Below the pieces are notes generated by a model. It had not been told where the DNA came from. It saw only the letters and a list, made by a program, of their open reading frames with translations, and made no database searches. 64,000 nt of DNA, from positions 96,180-160,179 of the IMG/VR virus record IMGVR_UViG_3300028048_001801; one strand, written 5' to 3'. A program made the position numbers and the translations under genes. The DNA comes from a virus (lineage: Duplodnaviria; Caudoviricetes). This document shows positions 1,940 through 56,915 of the stretch, in pieces; positions within the stretch are counted from its first letter, which is position 1, and each line of letters opens with the position of its first letter.

Positions 1940-2055
1940 TTATATATCCCCCTTTACACTTAATTTCTTCAGTATTTCCCTAACGATTCGCCGCGTGCGG
2001 CTCATCGCAGTGTTTTTGTAAAAATGTAATAAAATTAGGCTTTTATTACTTTAAA

Positions 2056-2109
2056 ACCACAATATATAGTATGTCTAAAAATATTGGCCACAATATATAG
2101 TAGGTCTAA
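2056..2109. promoter_or_regulatory. Tandem NrdR-box-like operator pair
   Basis: CCACAATATATAGTA at 2057 and 2088, 31-bp period. Matches the NrdR consensus acaCwAtATaTwGtg and its typical spacing. Confidence 0.65.
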
Positions 2110-2336
2110 TTTTCAATTTTTCCAGATTTGTTGGAGTTGTCATCTCCAGGAACTCCAATGAAATAATTGTAAACAATCCTAGACAGATGTGCGGCGCATC
2201 TCGGGCTGCACGTTCTGTACTTAATTGTCTCAATGATCATCGTTATAGTTTTGCCGTTGCCACGACCCTGACGTGTAATTATATCTGATTCTTCTGCTTC
2301 GAATTCTCTGCCACAACACATGCAATGCAATTTCAT
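2106..2336 (-). CDS. Small Zn-finger protein
   Basis: CMCC...CSPRC; ATG 2336 with GGAG SD below the promoter. Confidence 0.65.
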   Translation of the reverse strand: MKLHCMCCGREFEAEESDIITRQGRGNGKTITMIIETIKYRTCSPRCAAHLSRIVYNYFIGVPGDDNSNKSGKIEN

Positions 2337-2364
2337 AATGCGCTCCTTTGTTCTTCTATAATAG

Positions 2365-2393
2365 ATTATAACATATTTGCAACACGATGTCAA
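2365..2393 (-). promoter_or_regulatory. sigma70/sigmaA promoter
   Basis: TTGACA-17-TATAAT, extended -10. Confidence 0.85.
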
Positions 2394-2774
2394 CCATTTT
2401 CGTCATATTTTTTTAATTATTTTTTTTATTTTTTAGAAAATAATTAAAATTAATTTACCCCTAAAAACCATAGAAAAACCATATGTTTTTAAGGGTAAAT
2501 TATAATAAACAATGTGTTGATATTTTACGGGAGATTTCGCTGCGCAGTCGTCTACCGTCTTGTGTTTTGCATATCTGCATACCTTTGAAGAGTTCCGTCT
2601 CTACTACCAACCACCGTCATCACGGTGCGAGTTTTTTGATTTCCTCATATTCCTTTAATATCCGCATTCTTACGGTATACATGGTAAGATCTATTCTTCA
2701 AGATTTTTCGAGGAGCTACCCCAATAGTTTCTATGGAAATCGATCAAACCCTCCTATGAGTAGGTTGGGTTTTA

Positions 2775-2853
2775 TGGAGCCCCTGGTAGGCTATGCTCCT
2801 ACGATAATACCGGGGTACAAATCCGGCCCAGTCGTCTACTGTGGCACAGGGGC
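2775..2853 (-). tRNA. tRNA-Thr(UGU), atypical T-loop
   Basis: GCCCCTG/CAGGGGC acceptor stem, CCA end, anticodon loop TT-TGT-AC; T-loop is AGCATAG rather than TTCRA. Confidence 0.7.
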
Positions 2854-3005
2854 GTGCTATTTTTTGTTATTTTTTATTGTAATATTCCCAAACTATCCCA
2901 CTTGTTTATTGAGGGCGAAGATGCTATCTTCTACCCTCAATATGCCTACCATGGCAATGGTACGTAGGGTTCACGTTGCCTCATTTGTTATCTCACGAAG
3001 GTGAG

Positions 3006-3080
3006 TGGCGTTCCATAGGAGAGTTGAACTCCTGTCTTAAGAGTGACAGTCTTGTGTCTTAACCGTTGGACCAATAGAAC
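3006..3080 (-). tRNA. tRNA-Asp(GUC)
   Basis: Cloverleaf, CT-GTC-AC loop, TTCAACT T-loop, GCCA end. Confidence 0.9.
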
Positions 3081-3082
3081 AC

Positions 3083-3213
3083 AGATTTTACTCTTCCCCC
3101 CAATCACCGCTTCTACTCTTGGGAAGTTGAAATTGCTGTTTCTTCTTATAAGGCAATGAGATCCGTGGGTGAAAACGATTGTCTCAAAATTGTTCCTTAT
3201 AAAAGTAAAATCT
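3083..3213 (-). ncRNA. Putative structured ncRNA (about 130 nt)
   Basis: 10-bp closing inverted repeat (3083-3092/3204-3213) enclosing two further helices; lies between tRNA genes. Confidence 0.4.
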
Positions 3214-3214
3214 C

Positions 3215-3296
3215 TGGTGGAGTAGCAGAGAGTTGAACTCTGGTCTTTCAAGTTCCTTTGACGGCTTTACTTGAAATCGACAGCCGTTTCTACCCC
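3215..3296 (-). ncRNA. tmRNA-like RNA consisting only of the tRNA-like domain
   Basis: GGGGTAG/CTACTCC-ACCA with G3:U70, stemless D-loop ending TCGA, 8-bp helix, GAC, then canonical T-arm. Confidence 0.7.
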
Positions 3297-3300
3297 ATTT

Positions 3301-3376
3301 TGGTGGACCCAACAAGATTCGAACTTGCGACTTCCTGCTTGCAAGGCAGGCTATCTACCAACTGATATATGAGCCC
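3301..3376 (-). tRNA. tRNA-Ala(UGC)
   Basis: Cloverleaf, CT-TGC-AA loop, G3:U70, ACCA. Confidence 0.95.
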
Positions 3377-5024: not shown

Positions 5025-5552
5025 ATAGCAAGTTGTCGTATTGCTCGAAGTTCTACTTACTTGTCTTTAATGGGCGACCAACATTAACAAAACCACGCCC
5101 TGGACAAATTTTCAAATTCCTTACGTCAGTCCTTAGTCACGCCGCTTACCGACTAAATCGGGTGCGGTTTCATCTGGGAGAATTGATATTTCTATCAACT
5201 ATTCCACTGAGCATCTCTTCAGATATATCCGAATTTCACGGAATTACTAATTATCGTGATACTTGCAATCACCTTTTACTCCTCGCCATAGAACCTACTC
5301 TTCGTAAGCGTCTTGACTAATAGAACAATCGGAAACCTGACTTTCACAGGATTTCTTAATCTTCACAATAGAACCTGGTCATCTTGTTCAGTGATAATGG
5401 CCTACCCCACCGAACAATTGGATTCTCGTCTTTCCGAGACGTCATCTATTGTATTTACTAAGTATGGCTGCTACTTTCTTTGCCGACATTTAACCGATCC
5501 TCGTCTTCCCGATAAGCACCATACTTAGTATTTACTACCGATTTCTTTTTAC
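5025..5552 (-). ncRNA. Large (about 520 nt) structured ncRNA candidate
   Basis: No credible ORF, many nested inverted repeats (e.g. 12-bp 5456-67/5519-30), begins just downstream of a consensus promoter. Confidence 0.6.
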
Positions 5553-5558
5553 AGTCAT

Positions 5559-5587
5559 ATTATATATCATATTTATTAATTTGTCAA
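5559..5587 (-). promoter_or_regulatory. sigma70/sigmaA promoter for the ncRNA/tRNA operon
   Basis: Perfect TTGACA-17-TATAAT with A-tract UP element. Confidence 0.85.
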
Positions 5588-5615
5588 CCGTTTTCGACAC
5601 TTTTTTAAAATTTTT

Positions 5616-6464
5616 TTATTTTTTATGAAATAAACTTTTACTTTTGGCTTGTTCAACTATTTTTATAAGTGGTTGATAGAATGAGTAATTTATATATAAA
5701 TCAAAATAACCGACAATTCTACAATTTGGATCCCATGGACGCTGCCAGCTAAAATGTATTAGTCTGCAATTGCGCAAAGCGTTATCAAAACAATGACTCC
5801 CCCACAATTCATATGGTTGGAAATTGTAAATGAAACCATTTATTTTTGTAATCGGAATCTTGTCGATATATAAATTAAGAAAATCTTGATCTAAATATTT
5901 AAGTTTTGGCAAGTTGGAAAAGAAAATATCTTCAAAATCTTCCATAGAATAAGTTTGCCTAAATGTATCTAAGTTAAATTTTACTACACCCGCATTGCAA
6001 TAAATGTTTAGTGACCCCGATCTTGCGTCGCAACACCCATCAAGTTCATTGGCCATAACAAAAGGCGCTTTTAAGTTGAATAATGGTGTTAAGTCGCCCT
6101 TGCATAATATATCGGCGTCCAAATAAATAACCTCTTTTATATCATCCTCGTCTATTAACCATGGCGCAAAAACCCTAAAACACGTTGCATCGTGCCACCT
6201 ATGATGAGAAAGAGTGAAATTCATTTTATATTCATAAAGCATTATACCAAGAGCATATTTTTCATTAAATAATTCTCTGATGATATCTTCACCAAGTTTC
6301 TCACAGATGCATATAAAAGAAACGTTTTTGTTGCTTGCTTTTACAGACATCATAAGATTTATCGCTTGCATGTAATAACCGTTGTCAAAGGTTAACAAAA
6401 TGATATTATCTGAAATTTTAAAAAATTTAGTTGTTTTCTTAGACAATAATATAAAATTATTCAT
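5616..6464 (-). CDS. Glycosyltransferase family 8
   Basis: YLDADIL (DxD), NAGV, DQD, IHF..RPW motifs; start moved to ATG 6464. Confidence 0.85.
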   Translation of the reverse strand: MNNFILLSKKTTKFFKISDNIILLTFDNGYYMQAINLMMSVKASNKNVSFICICEKLGEDIIRELFNEKYALGIMLYEYKMNFTLSHHRWHDATCFRVFAPWLIDEDDIKEVIYLDADILCKGDLTPLFNLKAPFVMANELDGCCDARSGSLNIYCNAGVVKFNLDTFRQTYSMEDFEDIFFSNLPKLKYLDQDFLNLYIDKIPITKINGFIYNFQPYELWGSHCFDNALRNCRLIHFSWQRPWDPNCRIVGYFDLYINYSFYQPLIKIVEQAKSKSLFHKK

Positions 6465-7266
6465 TTCTATTGCCGAACTCTTGTATATATTTAAGTTTTT
6501 CTGGAGTTTTTTCATTTAGTTGCCAATAATAATCAAAATCCAAAACACGCTTATCAAACATAGCATCCCCTCTATTTAATTTTTGTTTAATGAATTCTTC
6601 AAGGGTCTTTGTCATATAATGGTTGATGAAAGCATTGTTTGAAAAATTGCCAAACTTATCTGTTGCGGTTATTTCACCTCGACACTCTATACCGTCCGCT
6701 GTTACTTGGCCAATGTGCATACCATTTATACGACAGCTATGCGTGTCAATATAAACATTTGATAACTTCCCTCTTGTTATTTGTTTGCCTTCTGTGAATA
6801 ATTCTATATTCTTTTTTATAATTTGTTTTTTAAAAAAAATATGAACAGGAACCCGCGTATCTCTTGTTATAAAACCGTCGTCCCCATACATATGCCAATG
6901 TAATTTAATGCTTGTCGCTTTTTGAAAAATTGGGCTCAATAACATTTCTGTAATATTTTGCCATTTGTTTAAAACAATATATTCGTCTATATCTATAAAC
7001 GCGCACCAATCAAATGTTTGATTATATTTTGCATAAAAAACATTATAACACTCTGGTTGAAAGAAATATTTTTTTATTCCACGAACGTCAAAAATTGTTA
7101 TTCGATCCATATATTGTGGTAAAATTATATTACCTATAAACACAGAACCGACATCATCATTATCAAATAAATAAATATGATTGAAACCGATATTAAAATG
7201 ATATTGGATCCATTCGTTTATGTATAAGTGTTCATTTTTTGCGATTGCGCAAATAACATTATTCAT
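6457..7266 (-). CDS. GT-A glycosyltransferase (GT92/GT2-like)
   Basis: CAIAKNE..YINEWIQYH..GF, FIDIDEYI, INHYMTKT motifs. Confidence 0.85.
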   Translation of the reverse strand: MNNVICAIAKNEHLYINEWIQYHFNIGFNHIYLFDNDDVGSVFIGNIILPQYMDRITIFDVRGIKKYFFQPECYNVFYAKYNQTFDWCAFIDIDEYIVLNKWQNITEMLLSPIFQKATSIKLHWHMYGDDGFITRDTRVPVHIFFKKQIIKKNIELFTEGKQITRGKLSNVYIDTHSCRINGMHIGQVTADGIECRGEITATDKFGNFSNNAFINHYMTKTLEEFIKQKLNRGDAMFDKRVLDFDYYWQLNEKTPEKLKYIQEFGNRNE

Positions 7267-49586: not shown

Positions 49587-49660
49587 TGGCAGGCGGTAGT
49601 TGTTCTGCCCAACCGTACTCGGAGTCAAAGTCCGATGCACTACTATTGTGCTAACCGCCT
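49587..49660 (-). tRNA. tRNA-Gln(UUG), atypical T-loop
   Basis: TCGGA-CT-TTG-AC-TCCGA arm, AGGCGGT/ACCGCCT stem, GCCA end; T-loop GGCAGAA. Confidence 0.8.
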
Positions 49661-50635: not shown

Positions 50636-52276
50636 TTAAATGTCGTCAAGATCAATTAGTTCATCGACTCTATAATCGTTCATTATCATACGATAATTGA
50701 ATTTACGACCAAACCAACCCTGGTCTAATGTTCCATATGCTGCAAGAGAAGCGTCGTCAGGAATAAACTCCCAATCATTAGAATTCCATTTGATAAACAG
50801 CATATAAGGCGTGGTTATCTTAGTATGTCTTCCATTACTCATCGAACCAACCTCATATTCTGTTACGTCTTCTATCATTACCGTAATTGGCGCAAAACCC
50901 TGCCCTGATATTTTGTTTAATTGTTTAAGCCAATCTATTAACTCTTTATTGATTTGTCTTTGCGATAACTGTATATCAACCGTCACATGCTGTTCAAACT
51001 CCACATCCGCGAGTTGTTCGGCAATTCTTTTTTCAAATTTTTCCTTGTTTCTTTTAGGCATCGTAAAGCCAGCGGCGTTACTATGTCCCATAGCCTTGGC
51101 GTATCTTGTTTTATTAATTATCTTAGAAAAATCTTCTATGCCAGCGGCCCTAATTGACCCGCTATAAACTTCTTCGCCAGAGGGATCTATACTTTCTTTC
51201 GTCATTATAATGGGTTTTTGGAATTGGCCCAAAGCTTTATTTGCCAGCAACCCACTGATACCATCCGACTCATCAAGAACAAAGAACATTACTTTATTAT
51301 TCTTTTGCTGTTCTGCTTGTTTTTCAATTTGAGAATAGGCCTCATCAACTTTTTGATTTTGCTTTTCTCGACACGTTTTCAATATCTCTATCAAGGTGTT
51401 TATTTCGGCTTCATCGTCTGATAAAAATAACTTTAAAGCATCCCAGTTTTGATTCATACGGTTTGCGGCATTAACCAACGGGGCAATTCCAAAAGAAACA
51501 GAGGTTGAATTCATCTCATAACCACCATTAATCTTTTTAATTGCTATATTGTTTAAGTTATCGAATCCCGTTTTGCAAATATATCTGTTTTCAAGCGAAT
51601 CAGTCCCAACAGACATCATATCTGCACAAATACCACAGGCTGCCAAATCATAATATTGTTCCGCATAATGTGTTCCAATAAGGGAGTCTATATATAAACA
51701 AAACTTTAACGCTACTCCCGCTCCACACAAATGTGGATTTGGATATTCGTTCATAGAACTGACCAAATGTATTTCTTTTTGCATGGCTAATACATTTGGA
51801 ACCAAATCATGATGATCAAGAACAATTATTTCCGATCCAATATTCAGCAATTCATCGTATAATACCGTATCGGTTTGTATTGAGTCAACAATAATAACGA
51901 TGTCATATTTCTTCTCAAAGCACGGCGCTGTCGACATCAAACCATGCGCCTTACCATCATTTATATATGGCGTAAGCAAGTCTTTATTAACAAAATGAGA
52001 CAAATAACGCATTATTATTGTCCCCGAAGTAATACCGTCTACTCAAACATCCGTGTCGTAATATACAAAAAAGCTTTGCTGATTTTGTATACCTTCTACG
52101 ACACGGAAAGCGCCCTCCTTTATGTTTTTAAAGTCCTCAAACGGCACCATATCTTCTTCAACAGGACACAAAAATCTATTTAAGTTCATTATGTCACGCG
52201 ATTTTAAAATTTCATTTTCTATCTTATTTAACGACCATTTTCGGCCATCGAGTTTTGCTTTCCAAATCTTCTGCAT
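50636..52276 (-). CDS. recJ: RecJ-like ssDNA exonuclease (DHH family) with in-frame TGA at 52043-52045
   Basis: ORFs 52043..52276 and 50636..52012 are in one frame: YYDTDV*VDGITSG; also LDHH, LCGAGV, ADMM, APLVNA, GSIR, GHSNAAG. Confidence 0.85.
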
Positions 52277-52277
52277 G

Positions 52278-53180
52278 TCAAATTTCTCCTTGCAATTGCT
52301 GTTTAATCAATATATATTTGTTGTATTTTCTATCTAAATAAACCGTTGCGTCTTCATACAAGAAATTTAATATTCTCATTGCTTGCTGGATTCCGCAAAA
52401 GGCCAACGATCTATAACAGCCATCTCTGTCTGGGTGTCTTTGTTTTATTTTATGTTTATTATATGTTATTATATTGTTTTCATATAAATATTTTTCTATG
52501 CTTTTTAAAATTTGTGGACAAGCACCAAAAACAACATTTAATTTAGTAACGCTTTTTGAGTATTTTTCATCAAAGCATTCATAAATAGTAAAACTTCCAT
52601 CTGCATCTAATAAACCACGCATAAAATCTTTAAAAAATTTTTGAGGAACACATCTTAGTAAATTTGTTGCATTCTCTCTATGCGGGACAAGCCCGTATTG
52701 ATTTCGCAGAACATCTATTAAATAACTATCAACAATAACAATTCTACTCTCTACACATTTATCGTTAAAACTCGTATTACTTTTAAAAAAATTAATAGCA
52801 TAATTCCCAGCAATTGCTTGATTAAATTTTTCCAAGTGTCTGTAATCTTCGAGTTTAAGCGATAATTTTAAATTTTTTTCTGTAATTTTATTATTTCTAA
52901 TTCGGACACACGTAGAGCCATCGGCCCATATAAAACCTATCCAATAAGCCTTTTCCTCGCTATCAATTTCATCAAAATAATGATTATTGAAACGTGTGTT
53001 TATTTTTTCGCCCTTAGGTCTCAATAATGCTTCATTTTTTAAGCCGGCAAGAATACGATCATTCATGGTTTTTTCAGAAATTCCTATAGATTTAGCCCAC
53101 TCAACAGCTTTTTTCTCTATTCCATCAACAGAAATATACCAGGCGTTCGACTTGTTTTTGCGGTAAACTCTCGTTTCCAA
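52278..53180 (-). CDS. Free-standing LAGLIDADG homing endonuclease
   Basis: YWIGFIWADG and FMRGLLDADG motifs, LYEDATVYLDRK; N-terminal WAKSIGI DNA-binding repeat. Confidence 0.88.
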   Translation of the reverse strand: METRVYRKNKSNAWYISVDGIEKKAVEWAKSIGISEKTMNDRILAGLKNEALLRPKGEKINTRFNNHYFDEIDSEEKAYWIGFIWADGSTCVRIRNNKITEKNLKLSLKLEDYRHLEKFNQAIAGNYAINFFKSNTSFNDKCVESRIVIVDSYLIDVLRNQYGLVPHRENATNLLRCVPQKFFKDFMRGLLDADGSFTIYECFDEKYSKSVTKLNVVFGACPQILKSIEKYLYENNIITYNKHKIKQRHPDRDGCYRSLAFCGIQQAMRILNFLYEDATVYLDRKYNKYILIKQQLQGEI

Positions 53181-53184
53181 TAAT

Positions 53185-54216
53185 TTATGCCTCCTTAAAG
53201 CATCTTAACAATTGATTGTTTATTATATTTTCATACTCATCTCTACCCATATCGGTGGGAGAGTTCTTTGTCCCTTTCAAAGCAGGGTTTTTAGTGTAAT
53301 CCCAGTAAAAAATTTCGACCTCTTGGAACCCCATGTTTTTCTTCAATAAATTAATATTTCTCTCTGTTTGCGCCAAATCAAGCCCTTCGTCTAAAGCGAA
53401 AATTATTTTTTGAGGATTTAATTGCAATATTAACCGTGCTTGTTTCGGTGAGAGAGAGTTACTCCCCAGTGCGACCACGTTCTTAACGCCGAAAGAATGC
53501 GCTTGCATAACCATTTTTTCAGATTCGCCAATTACCACAGTTTGCCCAAATAAATATTGATAATTTTGATAATAACCATATAAGTATTTTGAAGCAGAAC
53601 ATTCATGAAGATATAAATATTTTGGTATATATTCGTCTATATCCGCAGAATCAAGATTGATACGTCCCTTCACCCCAATTAGTCTTCCAAGTTCATCATA
53701 TAATGGTATGACAATACGTTGAGAATGTACGTCGAACATAATATGAAAATATCTCTGTGTTTCCAAAGATATTCCATCTCTCAAAAACCTGCGATTCGGG
53801 ACAAAGTCATACTCGTCCAATATTGTTTCTGGATACTCTGGCAATAATTCGTCTCTTGATGTTTTAGAGGCAATGCGATTATAAATCCCCTCAAATAATT
53901 CTACCCTCTTTTTGGGTGTCCAGTCGTTTTCGAGTTTTAGTAACTCTTTTACTTTATGTAAGACTTCTCCAAGAGTTTTCCCTTTTTCTTGCACAATATA
54001 TGCAAAAATATCCGTTGAAACGCCTCGGGCGAAATCGTGAACAAGTAAGGACGGGTTGTCTTCGAGTTTTATACTAATATTTTGACCGCCATCGGCATCT
54101 CGCCTAAAACGGAGTTCTCTTTGTTTTAACTGAAAATTTTCAAAACCATAAAAATCTAAAAGGTCAACCATGCGATCAACTTGCTCTAATAGCATCGTTT
54201 TAAGTTCTTTAAACAT
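53185..54216 (-). CDS. dnaG: DNA primase (TOPRIM)
   Basis: RIVIP..G.LIGVKGR, KYLY, LYG, GESEK, ALDEG; immediately follows the helicase. Confidence 0.8.
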   Translation of the reverse strand: MFKELKTMLLEQVDRMVDLLDFYGFENFQLKQRELRFRRDADGGQNISIKLEDNPSLLVHDFARGVSTDIFAYIVQEKGKTLGEVLHKVKELLKLENDWTPKKRVELFEGIYNRIASKTSRDELLPEYPETILDEYDFVPNRRFLRDGISLETQRYFHIMFDVHSQRIVIPLYDELGRLIGVKGRINLDSADIDEYIPKYLYLHECSASKYLYGYYQNYQYLFGQTVVIGESEKMVMQAHSFGVKNVVALGSNSLSPKQARLILQLNPQKIIFALDEGLDLAQTERNINLLKKNMGFQEVEIFYWDYTKNPALKGTKNSPTDMGRDEYENIINNQLLRCFKEA

Positions 54217-54251: not shown

Positions 54252-56915
54252 TTATCTTCTATCTTCGTTTGAGAAGAATTTTCTCGTCGGATAACATCTC
54301 GCTGTTTCATAGAAAGATGCATGGTCTAAGTCTGTTCTACATAAGAAAGCAGATCCATCAACTCCTGAGTCTACGCCACGTCTGGTTTTATCACTAAACG
54401 CAATAATCCACGTTTTATTTCTGTCTGCCTCATATGGTTCGTCATACCACTCTCCGCTTCCATCTGGTTTCATTTTTCTCCTAAATGGATGGATATAGAA
54501 TGGGGATTCGGGATCTAATTCAGGTGCGTATAGTTTTCTAAACAAAACAAGATTGCTCAACGTTTCCTTAATTTGTTTACAGTTTGCCAAACATGAACTA
54601 TCCAACCACGATCTATTGAGAGTATTAAGAGCAAGCTGTATAGTGATTATGCCTATAACATTATATTTCATTGCGATTTCGGTTAAAGAACGAACATCTC
54701 TTACTAACCCTACCCAGGTATTGTCACTGGTGTTGTCGTCAATTGTCATTTTCATTGTATCGACAATAAACGCCGAGGCGGCTTCTCTTAATATCGCTCT
54801 TTTTATAAGTTGGCATGAAAATTTGGTGTCGGCATCTGAGAGCGTTACTATCTTAATTTTCTTTGCATAATTTTCTTTCCAATATGCTTTTGCTTTTTGG
54901 ACAACTTCCCAATCAGCGCTATCGAACTCACCGCTTAATATCTTCCGCTTACTGAGTTTTTCATACTTAAAAACCCTATAAACGACCCAAGCCAAAAACA
55001 ACGCCTTAACATCACTCGAACTGGATTCGTTGGTTATCATTACAACCTTCTCACCCTTTGATGCAAGAGACATTGCCGTTGTTACCATGTAAGTTGTATT
55101 ATGAGTAACAACATAATCATTCGCCAAAAATAAATGATCTGCGGCTTCTACTGTAAAACACGTCATATCGGTTTTTTTACTAGTACGCTCAATGTCAATA
55201 ATAGGTAGGTGATCATTAAATTCTGTTCTGTTATTCAGTGAAAGATATGTGTCTATTCTGTGTTTTTTATTTAAGGCCCGAAACAATTTTGGTTTATCTT
55301 CTTTTGGCGTAGATAGTGTAATCGTATAACACACACCAGATTTATATTTGTCTCTGTTGTCGCAAGAGACAGTAGCAATATAACCAAGGCTTCTACACAA
55401 TTCAACAAAACCATCTTTTAAAGCGGTGCTTGTAGTTGAAAAACGCACTCGCCCTTTTTTATCAATTGTTCCATCTGTGTCCAACAAGCCCTGTAATAAA
55501 GACATACGCTGCTCAACAGACCCGAGCAAATAATCGCTGGGGATAAACTTTGTATTAGAGCGTGTATTCCAAAGGTCGGGGTAATTTTTTAATAAAACCT
55601 GTGTTTTAACCCTATGTTTAGGGTCATCTATAGGCCTAAAGTCGTAAGTATAATTTTTACAATTTATATTTATAGCCTTTGTACAAACTATATTCCCCAG
55701 AATATTTGTTAATAGATTAGGGATTTCACTTGTGCCCGACGAAAATTGAAGCGCTTTAGATGAAAAATGTCCATTCCCCAAAAGAGCACCCATTACGTAC
55801 GGGTCAACAGAGTATTGTTTTTGCGGATATTCAACGGCACCATTTAACTTAACGGCATATCTAAATTCATATTTCCCACGTTGAAACTGCCCATTACATC
55901 TATTATAAAGCTGTTCTGTTGTTTCTACTCTATAAGAATACTGGTCCGCTCCCCTGTGTCTATACTCCCATAAGTGATCTTTGCAACATTCAACGACGCG
56001 CCCATCTTTGAAATGAACCTTCCAAATCTCTTTTTGTTCGTCTTGCGGATGAATCATCAATACTTTAGTTGGTTTGCCATCTCGCCCAAATAAATAATCT
56101 CCTGGGCGAATATCACCAACTCTTCTGGGCCCTATTGGAGTAGGTATAATTGTATCGTTCGGAAGAGCTTTTCCACTGCCGCTATGGGATCCCCACGCTG
56201 AAAGAGTACCTGGTTTCAGTCCAAGCGTATTCGCTGACATAAACGGGAATGTTCTAATTTCATCTCCATCTATATCAAACCCCGCCTCGCCATATGAGAC
56301 ACCCATCTCTTCTTTATTTTTTAAGCTTTGCAACCACGCATCGTCGAACTCAATATAGCCCTCTTCCAAAAGTTTTGTGTTTTGGACTTTAGTTTGCATA
56401 GAGGCGATTGATCCCTCATAGAATTCGAGGACCTCAGCGCATGACAGATCTTTGAAGAACTCAAAGGGAACAATGTTTTTCCCATTGTCAAGAGTTATTG
56501 TAGAAAAGATATTGAACCCTTTTGTGTATAATTTTAACAATGTATTGCTTTTGTTTAAATCATCTAAGAAAGAATCCCAGTTTTTATCATTGACCGTGTC
56601 CATTACATTGTCAATTTGGCTATAATCGCCGAGCGCGTCTTCGACCATGTGGACAAAATCACTTTCTAAGCTAGATACGAACGTTACTTCATCGAATTTC
56701 TGAATGCCTTTTTCACGAAGTTTTTTTGCCATGATAAACAGCATTCTGCCGTTGTTGGTTATAAAATCATCCGCGTCCAAACCACAATCATCATAGAGCT
56801 CAAGATTTTTAAGAAGACATCCACAAACGTTTCCTTCGATTTGAACTCTCTTATCTAAAAGCCTCTCATCATATTTGTCTTTTATCGCAGGCACAAAACT
56901 ATCATATTGTATCAT
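54252..56915 (-). CDS. dnaB: Replicative DnaB-family helicase containing an intein
   Basis: Walker A SGSGK|TT split by the intein; ITNE, IVDT Walker B, TIQL, KTRRG. Confidence 0.88.
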   Translation of the reverse strand: MIQYDSFVPAIKDKYDERLLDKRVQIEGNVCGCLLKNLELYDDCGLDADDFITNNGRMLFIMAKKLREKGIQKFDEVTFVSSLESDFVHMVEDALGDYSQIDNVMDTVNDKNWDSFLDDLNKSNTLLKLYTKGFNIFSTITLDNGKNIVPFEFFKDLSCAEVLEFYEGSIASMQTKVQNTKLLEEGYIEFDDAWLQSLKNKEEMGVSYGEAGFDIDGDEIRTFPFMSANTLGLKPGTLSAWGSHSGSGKALPNDTIIPTPIGPRRVGDIRPGDYLFGRDGKPTKVLMIHPQDEQKEIWKVHFKDGRVVECCKDHLWEYRHRGADQYSYRVETTEQLYNRCNGQFQRGKYEFRYAVKLNGAVEYPQKQYSVDPYVMGALLGNGHFSSKALQFSSGTSEIPNLLTNILGNIVCTKAININCKNYTYDFRPIDDPKHRVKTQVLLKNYPDLWNTRSNTKFIPSDYLLGSVEQRMSLLQGLLDTDGTIDKKGRVRFSTTSTALKDGFVELCRSLGYIATVSCDNRDKYKSGVCYTITLSTPKEDKPKLFRALNKKHRIDTYLSLNNRTEFNDHLPIIDIERTSKKTDMTCFTVEAADHLFLANDYVVTHNTTYMVTTAMSLASKGEKVVMITNESSSSDVKALFLAWVVYRVFKYEKLSKRKILSGEFDSADWEVVQKAKAYWKENYAKKIKIVTLSDADTKFSCQLIKRAILREAASAFIVDTMKMTIDDNTSDNTWVGLVRDVRSLTEIAMKYNVIGIITIQLALNTLNRSWLDSSCLANCKQIKETLSNLVLFRKLYAPELDPESPFYIHPFRRKMKPDGSGEWYDEPYEADRNKTWIIAFSDKTRRGVDSGVDGSAFLCRTDLDHASFYETARCYPTRKFFSNEDRR
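55098..56168 (-). mobile_element. Class 3 intein (357 aa) with LAGLIDADG endonuclease
   Basis: Starts with Ala (ALPNDT), block B DHLW, block F MTC, ends VTHN before +1 Thr; LQGLLDTDG. Confidence 0.88.

Follow-up and report, generated by a model that had tools for sequence, protein, structure and literature searches.

A candidate stop-hop site with an upstream hairpin in the catalytic motif of phage recJ genes

Described bypassing systems and the interrupted recJ gene

In the synthetic stop-hops of Weiss, Dunn, Atkins and Gesteland (1987), a stop codon stands between matched codons, the peptidyl-tRNA in the P site re-pairs downstream, and nine nucleotides (nt) are used for one amino acid. The range of shifts is given in the title of that paper, '-2, -1, +1, +2, +5 and +6 ribosomal frameshifting' (ref. 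54 in PMC5009743). A 2016 review of recoding records that in-frame stop-hops have been shown with synthetic constructs; of natural ones, 'no occurrences are known' (PMC5009743). A natural system for comparison is the much longer bypass in gene 60 of phage T4, where refolding of the mRNA behind the ribosome is described as preventing backward sliding (PMC7026636); exit-side mRNA pairing is named as a driver of forward bypassing in the title of a preprint (10.1101/2024.12.09.627546). At the MobA/gene 60 locus of T4, the bypass has been retained after loss of the endonuclease, and the nuclease has been replaced (10.1101/2022.08.31.505936). This report examines a recJ-like gene in a 64,000-nt stretch of viral DNA (the window), which makes up the final 64 kb of a 160,179-bp IMG/VR viral contig (record IMGVR_UViG_3300028048_001801). 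The gene is interrupted by an in-frame TGA that lies between two valine codons within the D-x-D-x-D-G motif (motif I) of its DHH domain. All positions given are those of the window, in which all genes are on the minus strand.

The interrupted gene has the following parts:

52046–52276, minus strand: first recJ open reading frame (ORF1), 77 codons, of which the take-off codon GTT (52048–52046) is the last; assigned by full-length alignment with the N-termini of intact homologues of 544–545 amino acids (aa)
52043–52045, minus strand: in-frame TGA, the A-site codon at take-off; TAG instead in the lineage L004/L104
52040–52042, minus strand: landing codon GTA (Val), synonymous with GTT; the hop-joined ORF has 544 aa and reads …DTDVDGITSG…
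50636–52039, minus strand: second recJ open reading frame (ORF2) past the landing codon, with the remaining DHH domain, DHHA1 and a RecJ OB-like domain (Pfam; invariant alignment columns)

At the site, the minus strand reads TAC GAC ACG GAT GTT TGA GTA GAC GGT ATT ACT TCG GGG. The stop codon sits 231 nt downstream of the recJ ATG at 52276, and the frame is open on either side of it: a 77-codon ORF (52276–52046) is followed by a frame open to the stop at 50636. ORF1 covers the N-terminal region and runs into DHH motif I, of which it provides the first and second Asp (…YYDTDV); the third Asp and the Gly come from GAC GGT, the two codons after the landing GTA. In the downstream part, Pfam detects DHH (1.6e-9) and, weakly, DHHA1 and RecJ_OB. 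Motifs I–IV of RecJ-like DHH proteins are all present together with DHHA1; the alignment shows no variation at the motif II Asp, in the DHH triplet or at the GH of motif IV. The nearest named phage relatives are the SPbeta YorK-type RecJ-like exonucleases (~29% identical; tblastn), and the locus gave no megablast match among GenBank phages.

The first-pass annotation of the window, which was made from the sequence alone, had described a Val–stop–Val arrangement in frame on both sides within the DHH motif. It had also stated that removal of 6 nt restores D-x-D-x-D-G and that readthrough would add two residues, and had placed the end of a LAGLIDADG gene 1 nt before the recJ start. All its factual statements are confirmed: the minus-strand sequence agrees, the closest relative (P0002; intact, 91% identical, 544 aa) is exactly two residues shorter than the read-through translation of the window, and the LAGLIDADG gene runs from 53180 to 52278, next to the ATG at 52276.

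The reading favoured here, with a probability of about 70%, is that of a programmed stop-hop: its product would be a normal RecJ-like exonuclease, a hairpin on the exit side of the ribosome would aid it, and a recombining cassette would carry it. The ribosome would translate the 77 codons and halt when peptidyl-tRNA-Val occupies GUU in the P site and UGA has entered the A site. The tRNA would then un-pair, the mRNA would slip by 6 nt, and the same tRNA would re-pair on the synonymous GUA. Decoding would resume at GAC GGU to give a 544-aa RecJ-like DHH exonuclease with the metal-binding motif D-T-D-V-D-G; since decoding restarts after re-pairing on GUA, 9 nt would specify one Val. The product of such a hop would contain …YYDTDVDGITSG…, with the junction peptide …FFVYYDTDVDGITSGTIIMR; readthrough would give …DTDV-X-VDG…. 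Several hallmarks of bypassing are found at the site, namely a codon pair read by the same tRNA, a stop codon in the A site, and a full-length conserved protein (544–545 aa) that is restored by joining the two frames. The data described below show what the sequences are and how far they are conserved, that hairpin pairs covary, that the ORFs are under selection and that the distribution is mosaic; the hop itself, its efficiency and the role of the hairpin are inferred.

Interrupted relatives and shift classes

A homologue search with the read-through protein gave hundreds of matches, several of them C-terminal pieces of 455–460 aa. A second search, with the 77-aa N-terminal piece as query, found five further 77-aa proteins that end in …YYDTDV; on their contigs, GTT-TGA-GTA is present (L005–L017). 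The protein collection holds additional 77-aa N-terminal pieces ending in …DTDV or …DSDL. Interrupted alleles are present, always at the same codon, in the window and in 18 other assemblies, which come from ENA, Logan and the JGI collection; one of these alleles lies on a 165-kb contig whose name records 478x coverage. All aligned intact relatives have D-x-D-x-D-G where the window has D-T-D-V-stop-V-D-G, and the canonical spacing of this motif is kept in 114/114 full-length homologues. The residue x varies (T, C, V, Q, L, A, M and others).

The window is a metagenome-assembled viral contig, which brings in the possibility of an assembly or sequencing artefact; a related suggestion is that the insert is removed at the RNA level, by editing or as a micro-intron. 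An assembly artefact is ruled out because the same interruption occurs in the 18 other assemblies, which come from different pipelines and include the contig with 478x in its name. Concerning removal from the RNA, no Rfam family matches the region (between 48000 and 57000, tRNAs are the sole family matches), and we know of no splicing or editing mechanism for inserts of 2, 5 and 6 nt. Transcriptional slippage requires a homopolymer run, which the site lacks. Explanations of this kind are extremely improbable.

The interrupted alleles fall into three classes according to the shift that would rejoin the frames. The +6 class has GTT-TGA-GTA (window, L005–L017) or GTT-TAG-GTA (L004/L104, one lineage in two samples). 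The +5 class (L102) reads GAT ACT TAA CC GAT GGT, with the downstream frame at +2 relative to the upstream frame; a hop of 5 nt from ACT to the overlapping ACC would give D-S-D-T-D-G. The +2 class (L002 and L103, which have different backbones) reads GAT CTC TAG ATG G; a +2 slip that takes CTC onto CTA, with GAT GG read next, would give D-x-D-L-D-G. The L103-type N-terminal piece occurs on three more contigs. In terms of mRNA, these sister cassettes would thus use ACU-UAA-CC (+5, onto ACC) and CUC-UAG (+2, onto CUA).

Two regularities hold across the classes. All three stop codons (TGA, TAG and TAA) occur right after the take-off codon, and the codon at take-off and its landing codon are synonyms in each class: GTT/GTA (Val), ACT/ACC (Thr) and CTC/CTA (Leu). 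Re-pairing of the P-site tRNA on the synonymous codon would restore the canonical D-x-D-x-D-G spacing in all three. Once the frames are joined at +6, +5 or +2, the result is an ORF of 544–545 aa, or one that stays open to the end of the contig, with no other defect in any of the 19 interrupted alleles. The survey that the first-pass annotation had suggested, for matched codon–stop–codon inserts at this motif in phage recJ homologues, has in this way turned up the same codon in 18 other assemblies and three shift sizes; the inactivating mutations downstream that it had named as an argument against a hop are found in none of the 19.

Interruption is confined to close relatives. Within the close clade (at least 60% identity), ~40% of the sampled allele lineages are interrupted. 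No interruption is seen in some 160 more distant relatives (at most 45% identity), which come from IMG/VR, metagenomes and three Clostridia genomes; in IMG/VR, a scan with the single protein gave no match, and an alignment-based scan found only intact relatives at no more than 45% identity. One intact close relative, L003, had appeared truncated because the gene caller missed its TTG start. Related prophage copies are found in Konateibacter and Clostridium genomes and, together with strong Shine–Dalgarno sites, point to Clostridia as hosts of these phages. Several of the contigs carry the assembly labels STEW19 or TONG22, which we take to denote rumen or gut studies.

In the case of stop-codon readthrough, a near-cognate or suppressor tRNA would decode UGA (UAG in L004/L104); the protein would have 546 aa, with an extra V-X in motif I, and the stop codon would throttle expression. 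UGA is leaky in Bacillota, and the +6 alleles are indeed in frame on either side of the stop. However, readthrough cannot rescue the +5 and +2 alleles, which change frame at the same site and with the same hairpin architecture, nor would it require the synonymous flanking codons that are present in every class. Extra residues in D-x-D-x-D-G are found in 0/114 homologues, and neither a suppressor tRNA nor a tRNA-Val was found across the 160-kb phage genome. Readthrough is therefore regarded as quite unlikely.

Selection on the ORFs bears on a further alternative. Among the cassette-bearing alleles L005–L008, synonymous divergence (dS) is 0.41–0.80, and the ratio of nonsynonymous to synonymous divergence (dN/dS) is 0.02–0.03; judged by these substitution patterns, selection on recJ is purifying. 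The roughly ten codons from the stop to the next Met, which encode D-G-I-T-S-G of the catalytic motif, vary mostly synonymously, and the conserved Met after the stop is replaced by ACG in L004/L104. Both observations make a separately initiated C-terminal fragment unlikely. Such a fragment would be needed in a split gene, in which the 77-aa N-terminal piece and a C-terminal piece form an active enzyme of two chains. Gene callers do give a C-terminal ORF of 455–460 aa from the conserved Met, and split phage genes beside homing endonucleases are known (10.1101/2022.08.31.505936). Against this, no start codon in the right frame adjoins the stop in any class, the internal Met is preceded by no Shine–Dalgarno sequence, and the codons between stop and Met remain conserved at the protein level. 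A split gene is very unlikely.

Three other routes were considered and rejected. Genome-wide stop reassignment does not fit long ORFs that are normal under table 11, nor the presence of all three stops at the hop site in relatives. For the +2 class, a -1 frameshift would enter an alternative frame that has a TGA four codons upstream, and by inspection no intervening codon re-pairs at -1. Termination followed by reinitiation would need a start codon in the correct frame, and none lies near any of the stops.

Upstream hairpin and mobile cassette

Three further elements, which overlap the coding sequence around the stop, are needed in what follows:

52050–52107, minus strand: 58-nt coding hairpin; lower stem 52107–52097 with 52060–52050, upper stem 52092–52083 with 52070–52061 (folding and covariation)
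52114–52118, minus strand: Shine–Dalgarno-like GGAGG, 6 nt 5' of the hairpin base (alignments)
52034–52123, minus strand: hop cassette, comprising the Shine–Dalgarno-like element, hairpin, take-off codon, stop, landing codon and GACGG; boundaries from pairwise comparison with intact alleles of the same backbones

The 3' base of the hairpin lies 1 nt before the take-off codon. Its lower stem has 11 bp (UCCGUGUCGUA with UACGACACGGA) and its upper stem 10 bp. At the protein level, this region gives rise to an unusual upstream haplotype that is common to all interrupted alleles, …KEGAFRVVEGIQN.KSFFVYYDTDV; intact alleles have …KEAAEIVIKGIENNKNFFIYFDVD or similar. The fold was tested on a 68-nt segment (52045–52112 in the window) against 200 dinucleotide shuffles per allele, with the following minimum free energies (MFE) and z-scores:

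Window, +6: MFE -27.9 kcal/mol, z -6.45
L002, +2: MFE -24.1 kcal/mol, z -6.26
L102, +5: MFE -24.9 kcal/mol, z -6.81
L103, +2: MFE -22.8 kcal/mol, z -5.55
L098, intact: MFE -8.2 kcal/mol, z -0.6
L099, intact: MFE -8.0 kcal/mol, z -0.2
L100, intact: MFE -4.8 kcal/mol, z +1.9
L187, intact: MFE -8.9 kcal/mol, z -0.4
L003, intact: MFE -8.3 kcal/mol, z -1.4

For each of the four interrupted alleles, 0/200 shuffles folded as well as the natural sequence, and by folding the hairpin is absent from all five close intact alleles listed. Covariation points in the same direction. In an alignment of eight distinct cassette sequences, compensatory double changes occur at six pairs (four in the lower helix, two in the upper), for example CCG/CGG to CGC/GCG in L102, U-A to A-U and G-C to A-U in L103, and A-U to G-C in L015. 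None of 500 shuffles reached this level of covariation; the lower helix is 98.9% paired, and sliding the register reduces pairing in the hairpin from 93% to 26–58%. In L002, a hairpin is found at the same position with an unrelated sequence (AGAUCUGUAU with AUACAGAUCU). Sense-strand G-U pairs in the hairpin fit a structure formed in RNA rather than in DNA.

When the ribosome has the take-off codon in its P site, positions -2 to -12 fall on the 3' arm of the lower stem, and the upper stem-loop lies just beyond; the boundary of the ribosome exit is assumed to be at -12. The lower stem may re-zip as the mRNA leaves the ribosome, which would favour forward slippage and block backward movement. On this model, a mechanical (ratchet) role for the hairpin is plausible, and from the comparisons above the 5' hairpin, which the first-pass annotation had missed, appears to be the main accessory element of the hop site.

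The second candidate element is the Shine–Dalgarno-like sequence. All interrupted alleles that were inspected (window, 52111–52120; L002, L004–L017, L102 and L103) have AAGGAGG (AGGAG in L102) at a distance of 6–7 nt from the hairpin base, on its 5' side. The sequence is absent from five intact alleles, which read AAAGAGGCG, AAACAAGCA, AAAGAAGCG, CAGGAAGCC and GAATCAGCC. When the hairpin is closed, the element comes to lie ~7 nt from the take-off codon; in a model in which the 3' arm is held within the ribosome, GGAGG pairs with CUUUCC of the free 5' arm. Bypassing sites typically have a cis-acting stimulator that is conserved along with them, and here the allele-specific, covarying hairpin and the Shine–Dalgarno-like element are both present in this way, as putative stimulators. 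No nascent-peptide signal is evident at the recJ hop site.

Three backbones are represented in both intact and interrupted form (window/L098, L010/L099 and L005–8/L100), and in each the difference is limited to ~90 nt, at gene positions 154–243 (window 52123–52034). Between diverged backbones, the cassettes share 83–97% nucleotide identity versus 61–78% in the flanks. This contrast indicates recombinational transfer, strong constraint at the nucleotide level, or both. The hairpin and the hop site would form a single cassette that has moved by recombination among diverged phage recJ alleles.

The same mosaic distribution, with cassettes far more similar than their flanks, could also be produced by a selfish knock-out cassette. 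In this case, the insert would inactivate recJ and spread by endonuclease-driven gene conversion or by hitch-hiking; the gene would look intact because acquisitions are recent, and the hairpin would serve mobility at the DNA level or recognition by an endonuclease. Mobile nuclease genes do adjoin some of the cassette alleles (see below), and RecJ-like genes may, on the assumption made here, be dispensable for phage growth. Yet secondary defects are found in 0/19 interrupted alleles, and dN/dS is 0.02–0.03 at dS 0.4–0.8 among cassette alleles. The hairpin, moreover, covaries and has sense-strand G-U pairs, and its place is taken by an unrelated hairpin sequence in L002. A purely selfish insert is considered unlikely.

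Several points weigh against a programmed, hairpin-aided hop. Much of the backbone divergence may pre-date entry of the cassette, which weakens the dN/dS argument, and recent selfish spread, not function, could be why the cassettes are nearly identical on different backbones. With the exit boundary at -12, the model gives only a small gain from re-zipping over the first 5–6 nt (-14.7 to -18.2 kcal/mol); the 'spring' role of the hairpin is therefore kept as something that we infer. Synthetic stop-hops in E. coli are inefficient, at ~1%, so that the yield may be low. The +5 class is known from a single 2.7-kb contig. The +2 class could have begun as a trivial CT duplication, and re-pairing from CUC to CUA needs either a mismatch at the wobble position or a tRNA-Leu able to read every one of the four CUN codons. 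The translational hop proposed in the first-pass annotation is strongly supported by comparative evidence, that is, by the relatives, by ORFs that are otherwise intact and under purifying selection, and by the allele-specific, covarying hairpin.

How does the locus compare with the systems described above? Like the synthetic stop-hops of 1987, the recJ site has matched codons on either side of a stop, would use 9 nt for one amino acid, and would rely on re-pairing of the P-site peptidyl-tRNA downstream. The recJ shift sizes (+2, +5 and +6) are all among the forward shifts named in the title of Weiss et al. The synthetic constructs were artificial, of low efficiency and without a dedicated stimulator; the recJ site, in contrast, is natural, conserved, placed in a catalytic motif and accompanied by a covarying 5' hairpin.

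As in T4 gene 60, the interruption at recJ falls in a DNA enzyme's metal-binding motif that is invariant, and the codon just before the take-off codon is one for Asp (10.1101/2022.08.31.505936; PMC7026636; PMC5462505). In both cases, mRNA structure 5' of the take-off codon is implicated, and the element is mobile and mosaic, with a neighbouring nuclease gene that varies or has been replaced. The differences are equally clear. The gap amounts to 3 nt plus the landing codon (or less) in recJ versus 50 nt in gene 60, and the recJ gap contains neither a take-off stem-loop nor an internal Shine–Dalgarno sequence; a recognisable nascent-peptide (KKYK-type) signal, as in gene 60, is likewise missing. 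The dominant signal at recJ is a long exit-side hairpin, whereas the 5' stem-loop of gene 60 is poorly conserved. The host gene is recJ rather than a topoisomerase gene, the neighbouring nuclease is of the LAGLIDADG type rather than MobA (HNH), and most recJ cassettes have no nuclease gene beside them. Judged by these sequence features, the recJ element is analogous to the gene 60 cassette, resembling a miniature version, and is not a member of that system.

Two other comparisons are the mitochondrial 'byp' elements of Magnusiomyces capitatus and a candidate bypass in a Streptomyces phage terminase. As at recJ, short coding inserts are tolerated there through hops between matched or nearly matched codons at a slow or unusable A-site codon (PMC5009743; PMC10732093). 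The byps, however, are hairpin inserts of 27–55 nt, and it is these inserts that are skipped, in mitochondria whose decoding is relaxed; at recJ, the hairpin is upstream and is itself translated, and the host belongs to Bacillota with the standard code. The Streptomyces candidate relies on a rare UUA codon, unlike the stop at recJ. No paper that combines translational bypassing with RecJ came up in a full-text literature search, and in the literature searched no case of a natural minimal stop-hop is reported.

In this comparison, three features appear distinct: the gap is minimal, shifts of +6, +5 and +2 form a series at the x codon, which is variable (Val, Leu or Thr), and a covarying hairpin lies 5' of the site. 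A wider proposal can be made from the sequence data, to which we give an even chance. The recJ sites would be the first natural family of minimal stop-hops (+6, +5 and +2; at most 9 nt per amino acid), driven by an exit-side hairpin acting as a forward ratchet, possibly together with a Shine–Dalgarno-like element that is brought near by the fold. They would form a mobile recoding cassette among recJ genes of phages that infect rumen or gut Clostridia, having arisen as an escape from homing endonucleases that cut the D-x-D-x-D-G motif.

The locus provides a natural series in which shift size (+6, +5, +2), stop codon, tRNA (Val, Thr, Leu) and hairpin sequence vary, and position and geometry are fixed. 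This makes it a compact system for studying how refolding of mRNA at the ribosome exit drives or guards forward slippage, a matter on which debate continues for T4 gene 60. In the output of gene callers, such genes appear as two, a 77-aa 'hypothetical' protein and a truncated recJ, so similar sites have probably been missed. In the 160-kb genome itself, there is no second junction of a codon, a stop and a synonymous codon between long in-frame ORFs.

Neighbouring genes and other observations

Upstream of recJ, two genes follow each other closely:

52278–53180, minus strand: free-standing LAGLIDADG gene with two motifs, 300 aa, between the primase gene and recJ (Pfam)
53185–54216, minus strand: DnaG-like primase gene, the conserved upstream neighbour of recJ (synteny in relatives)

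The LAGLIDADG protein matches LAGLIDADG_1 with 26.2 bits (cut-off 23.1) and LAGLIDADG_3 with 18.1 bits, which is under the cut-off of that family. Both motifs are visible in the translation (…IWADGS… and …LLDADGS…), as is typical of LAGLIDADG homing endonucleases, and endonuclease activity is predicted on this basis; a PDB sequence search with the protein gave no match. At the same primase–recJ junction, L015–L017 have a LAGLIDADG gene that is 86% identical. Between the window and the L015–17 lineage, the 5' region of recJ that separates the LAGLIDADG gene from the cassette is 75% identical and has not been co-converted. In L005, the junction is occupied instead by an IscB-like gene with RRXRR and HNH domains (1980–3359; Pfam 2.9e-45). 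The recJ-proximal junction of L005 (aaggagaaatttgac-ATG) is the same as that beside the LAGLIDADG gene of the window, and the 3' end of the L005 primase gene is altered; this suggests turnover of nuclease genes at a single landing pad.

The first-pass annotation had proposed that the insert immunises its allele against the adjacent endonuclease and had suggested a survey for co-occurrence of the two. Co-occurrence holds in part. A nuclease gene adjoins recJ at this junction in three of ~9 interrupted lineages versus none of five close intact alleles, and the remaining interrupted alleles (L002, L004/L104, L006-9, L010-14 and L102) have no nuclease gene there. In the ~160 distant intact loci, primase and recJ are separated by 0–17 nt, save for a 44-nt gap in L059 and a 598-nt insert in L076. 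A fusion called as one ORF in P0031 (825 aa, on a 24,942-bp contig, 46% identical) joins an I-HmuI-like HNH/NUMOD endonuclease to an intact recJ, a further nuclease insertion at the 5' end of recJ; nuclease genes therefore also occur beside uninterrupted alleles. The immunity idea draws little support from this distribution, because most cassette alleles have no adjacent endonuclease. That all inserts are found at one codon would fit a shared cleavage site. On balance, an origin of the cassette as an escape from a homing endonuclease that cuts the D-x-D-x-D-G motif is tentatively put forward and rather doubtful; if the link were true, it would be another case of homing endonucleases pushing essential motifs towards translational recoding. 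The further suggestion of the first-pass annotation, that the stop limits RecJ levels, is a conjecture.

Some minor observations concern the surroundings of recJ in the window and in relatives. The 598-nt insert of L076 contains a 198-aa ORF (2339–2935) without a Pfam match. In L003, a TnpB/Cas12f-like OrfB_IS605 gene (5501–6673) lies immediately downstream of the intact recJ. Beside the tRNA-His gene of the window, Rfam detects a second tRNA at 49590–49660 (minus strand; 46.7 bits), which was not called by ARAGORN. By eye, its anticodon loop is CUUUGAC, with the anticodon UUG (Gln), and the region of the T-arm is odd; it is not a suppressor. A DnaB-like helicase ORF of 887 aa at 54252–56915 (minus strand) probably contains an intein, because Hom_end and LAGLIDADG_3 matches are found in its middle. 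In relatives, the helicase has 522–531 aa without the insert (L002–L004) or ~885 aa with the insert (L100 and L187).

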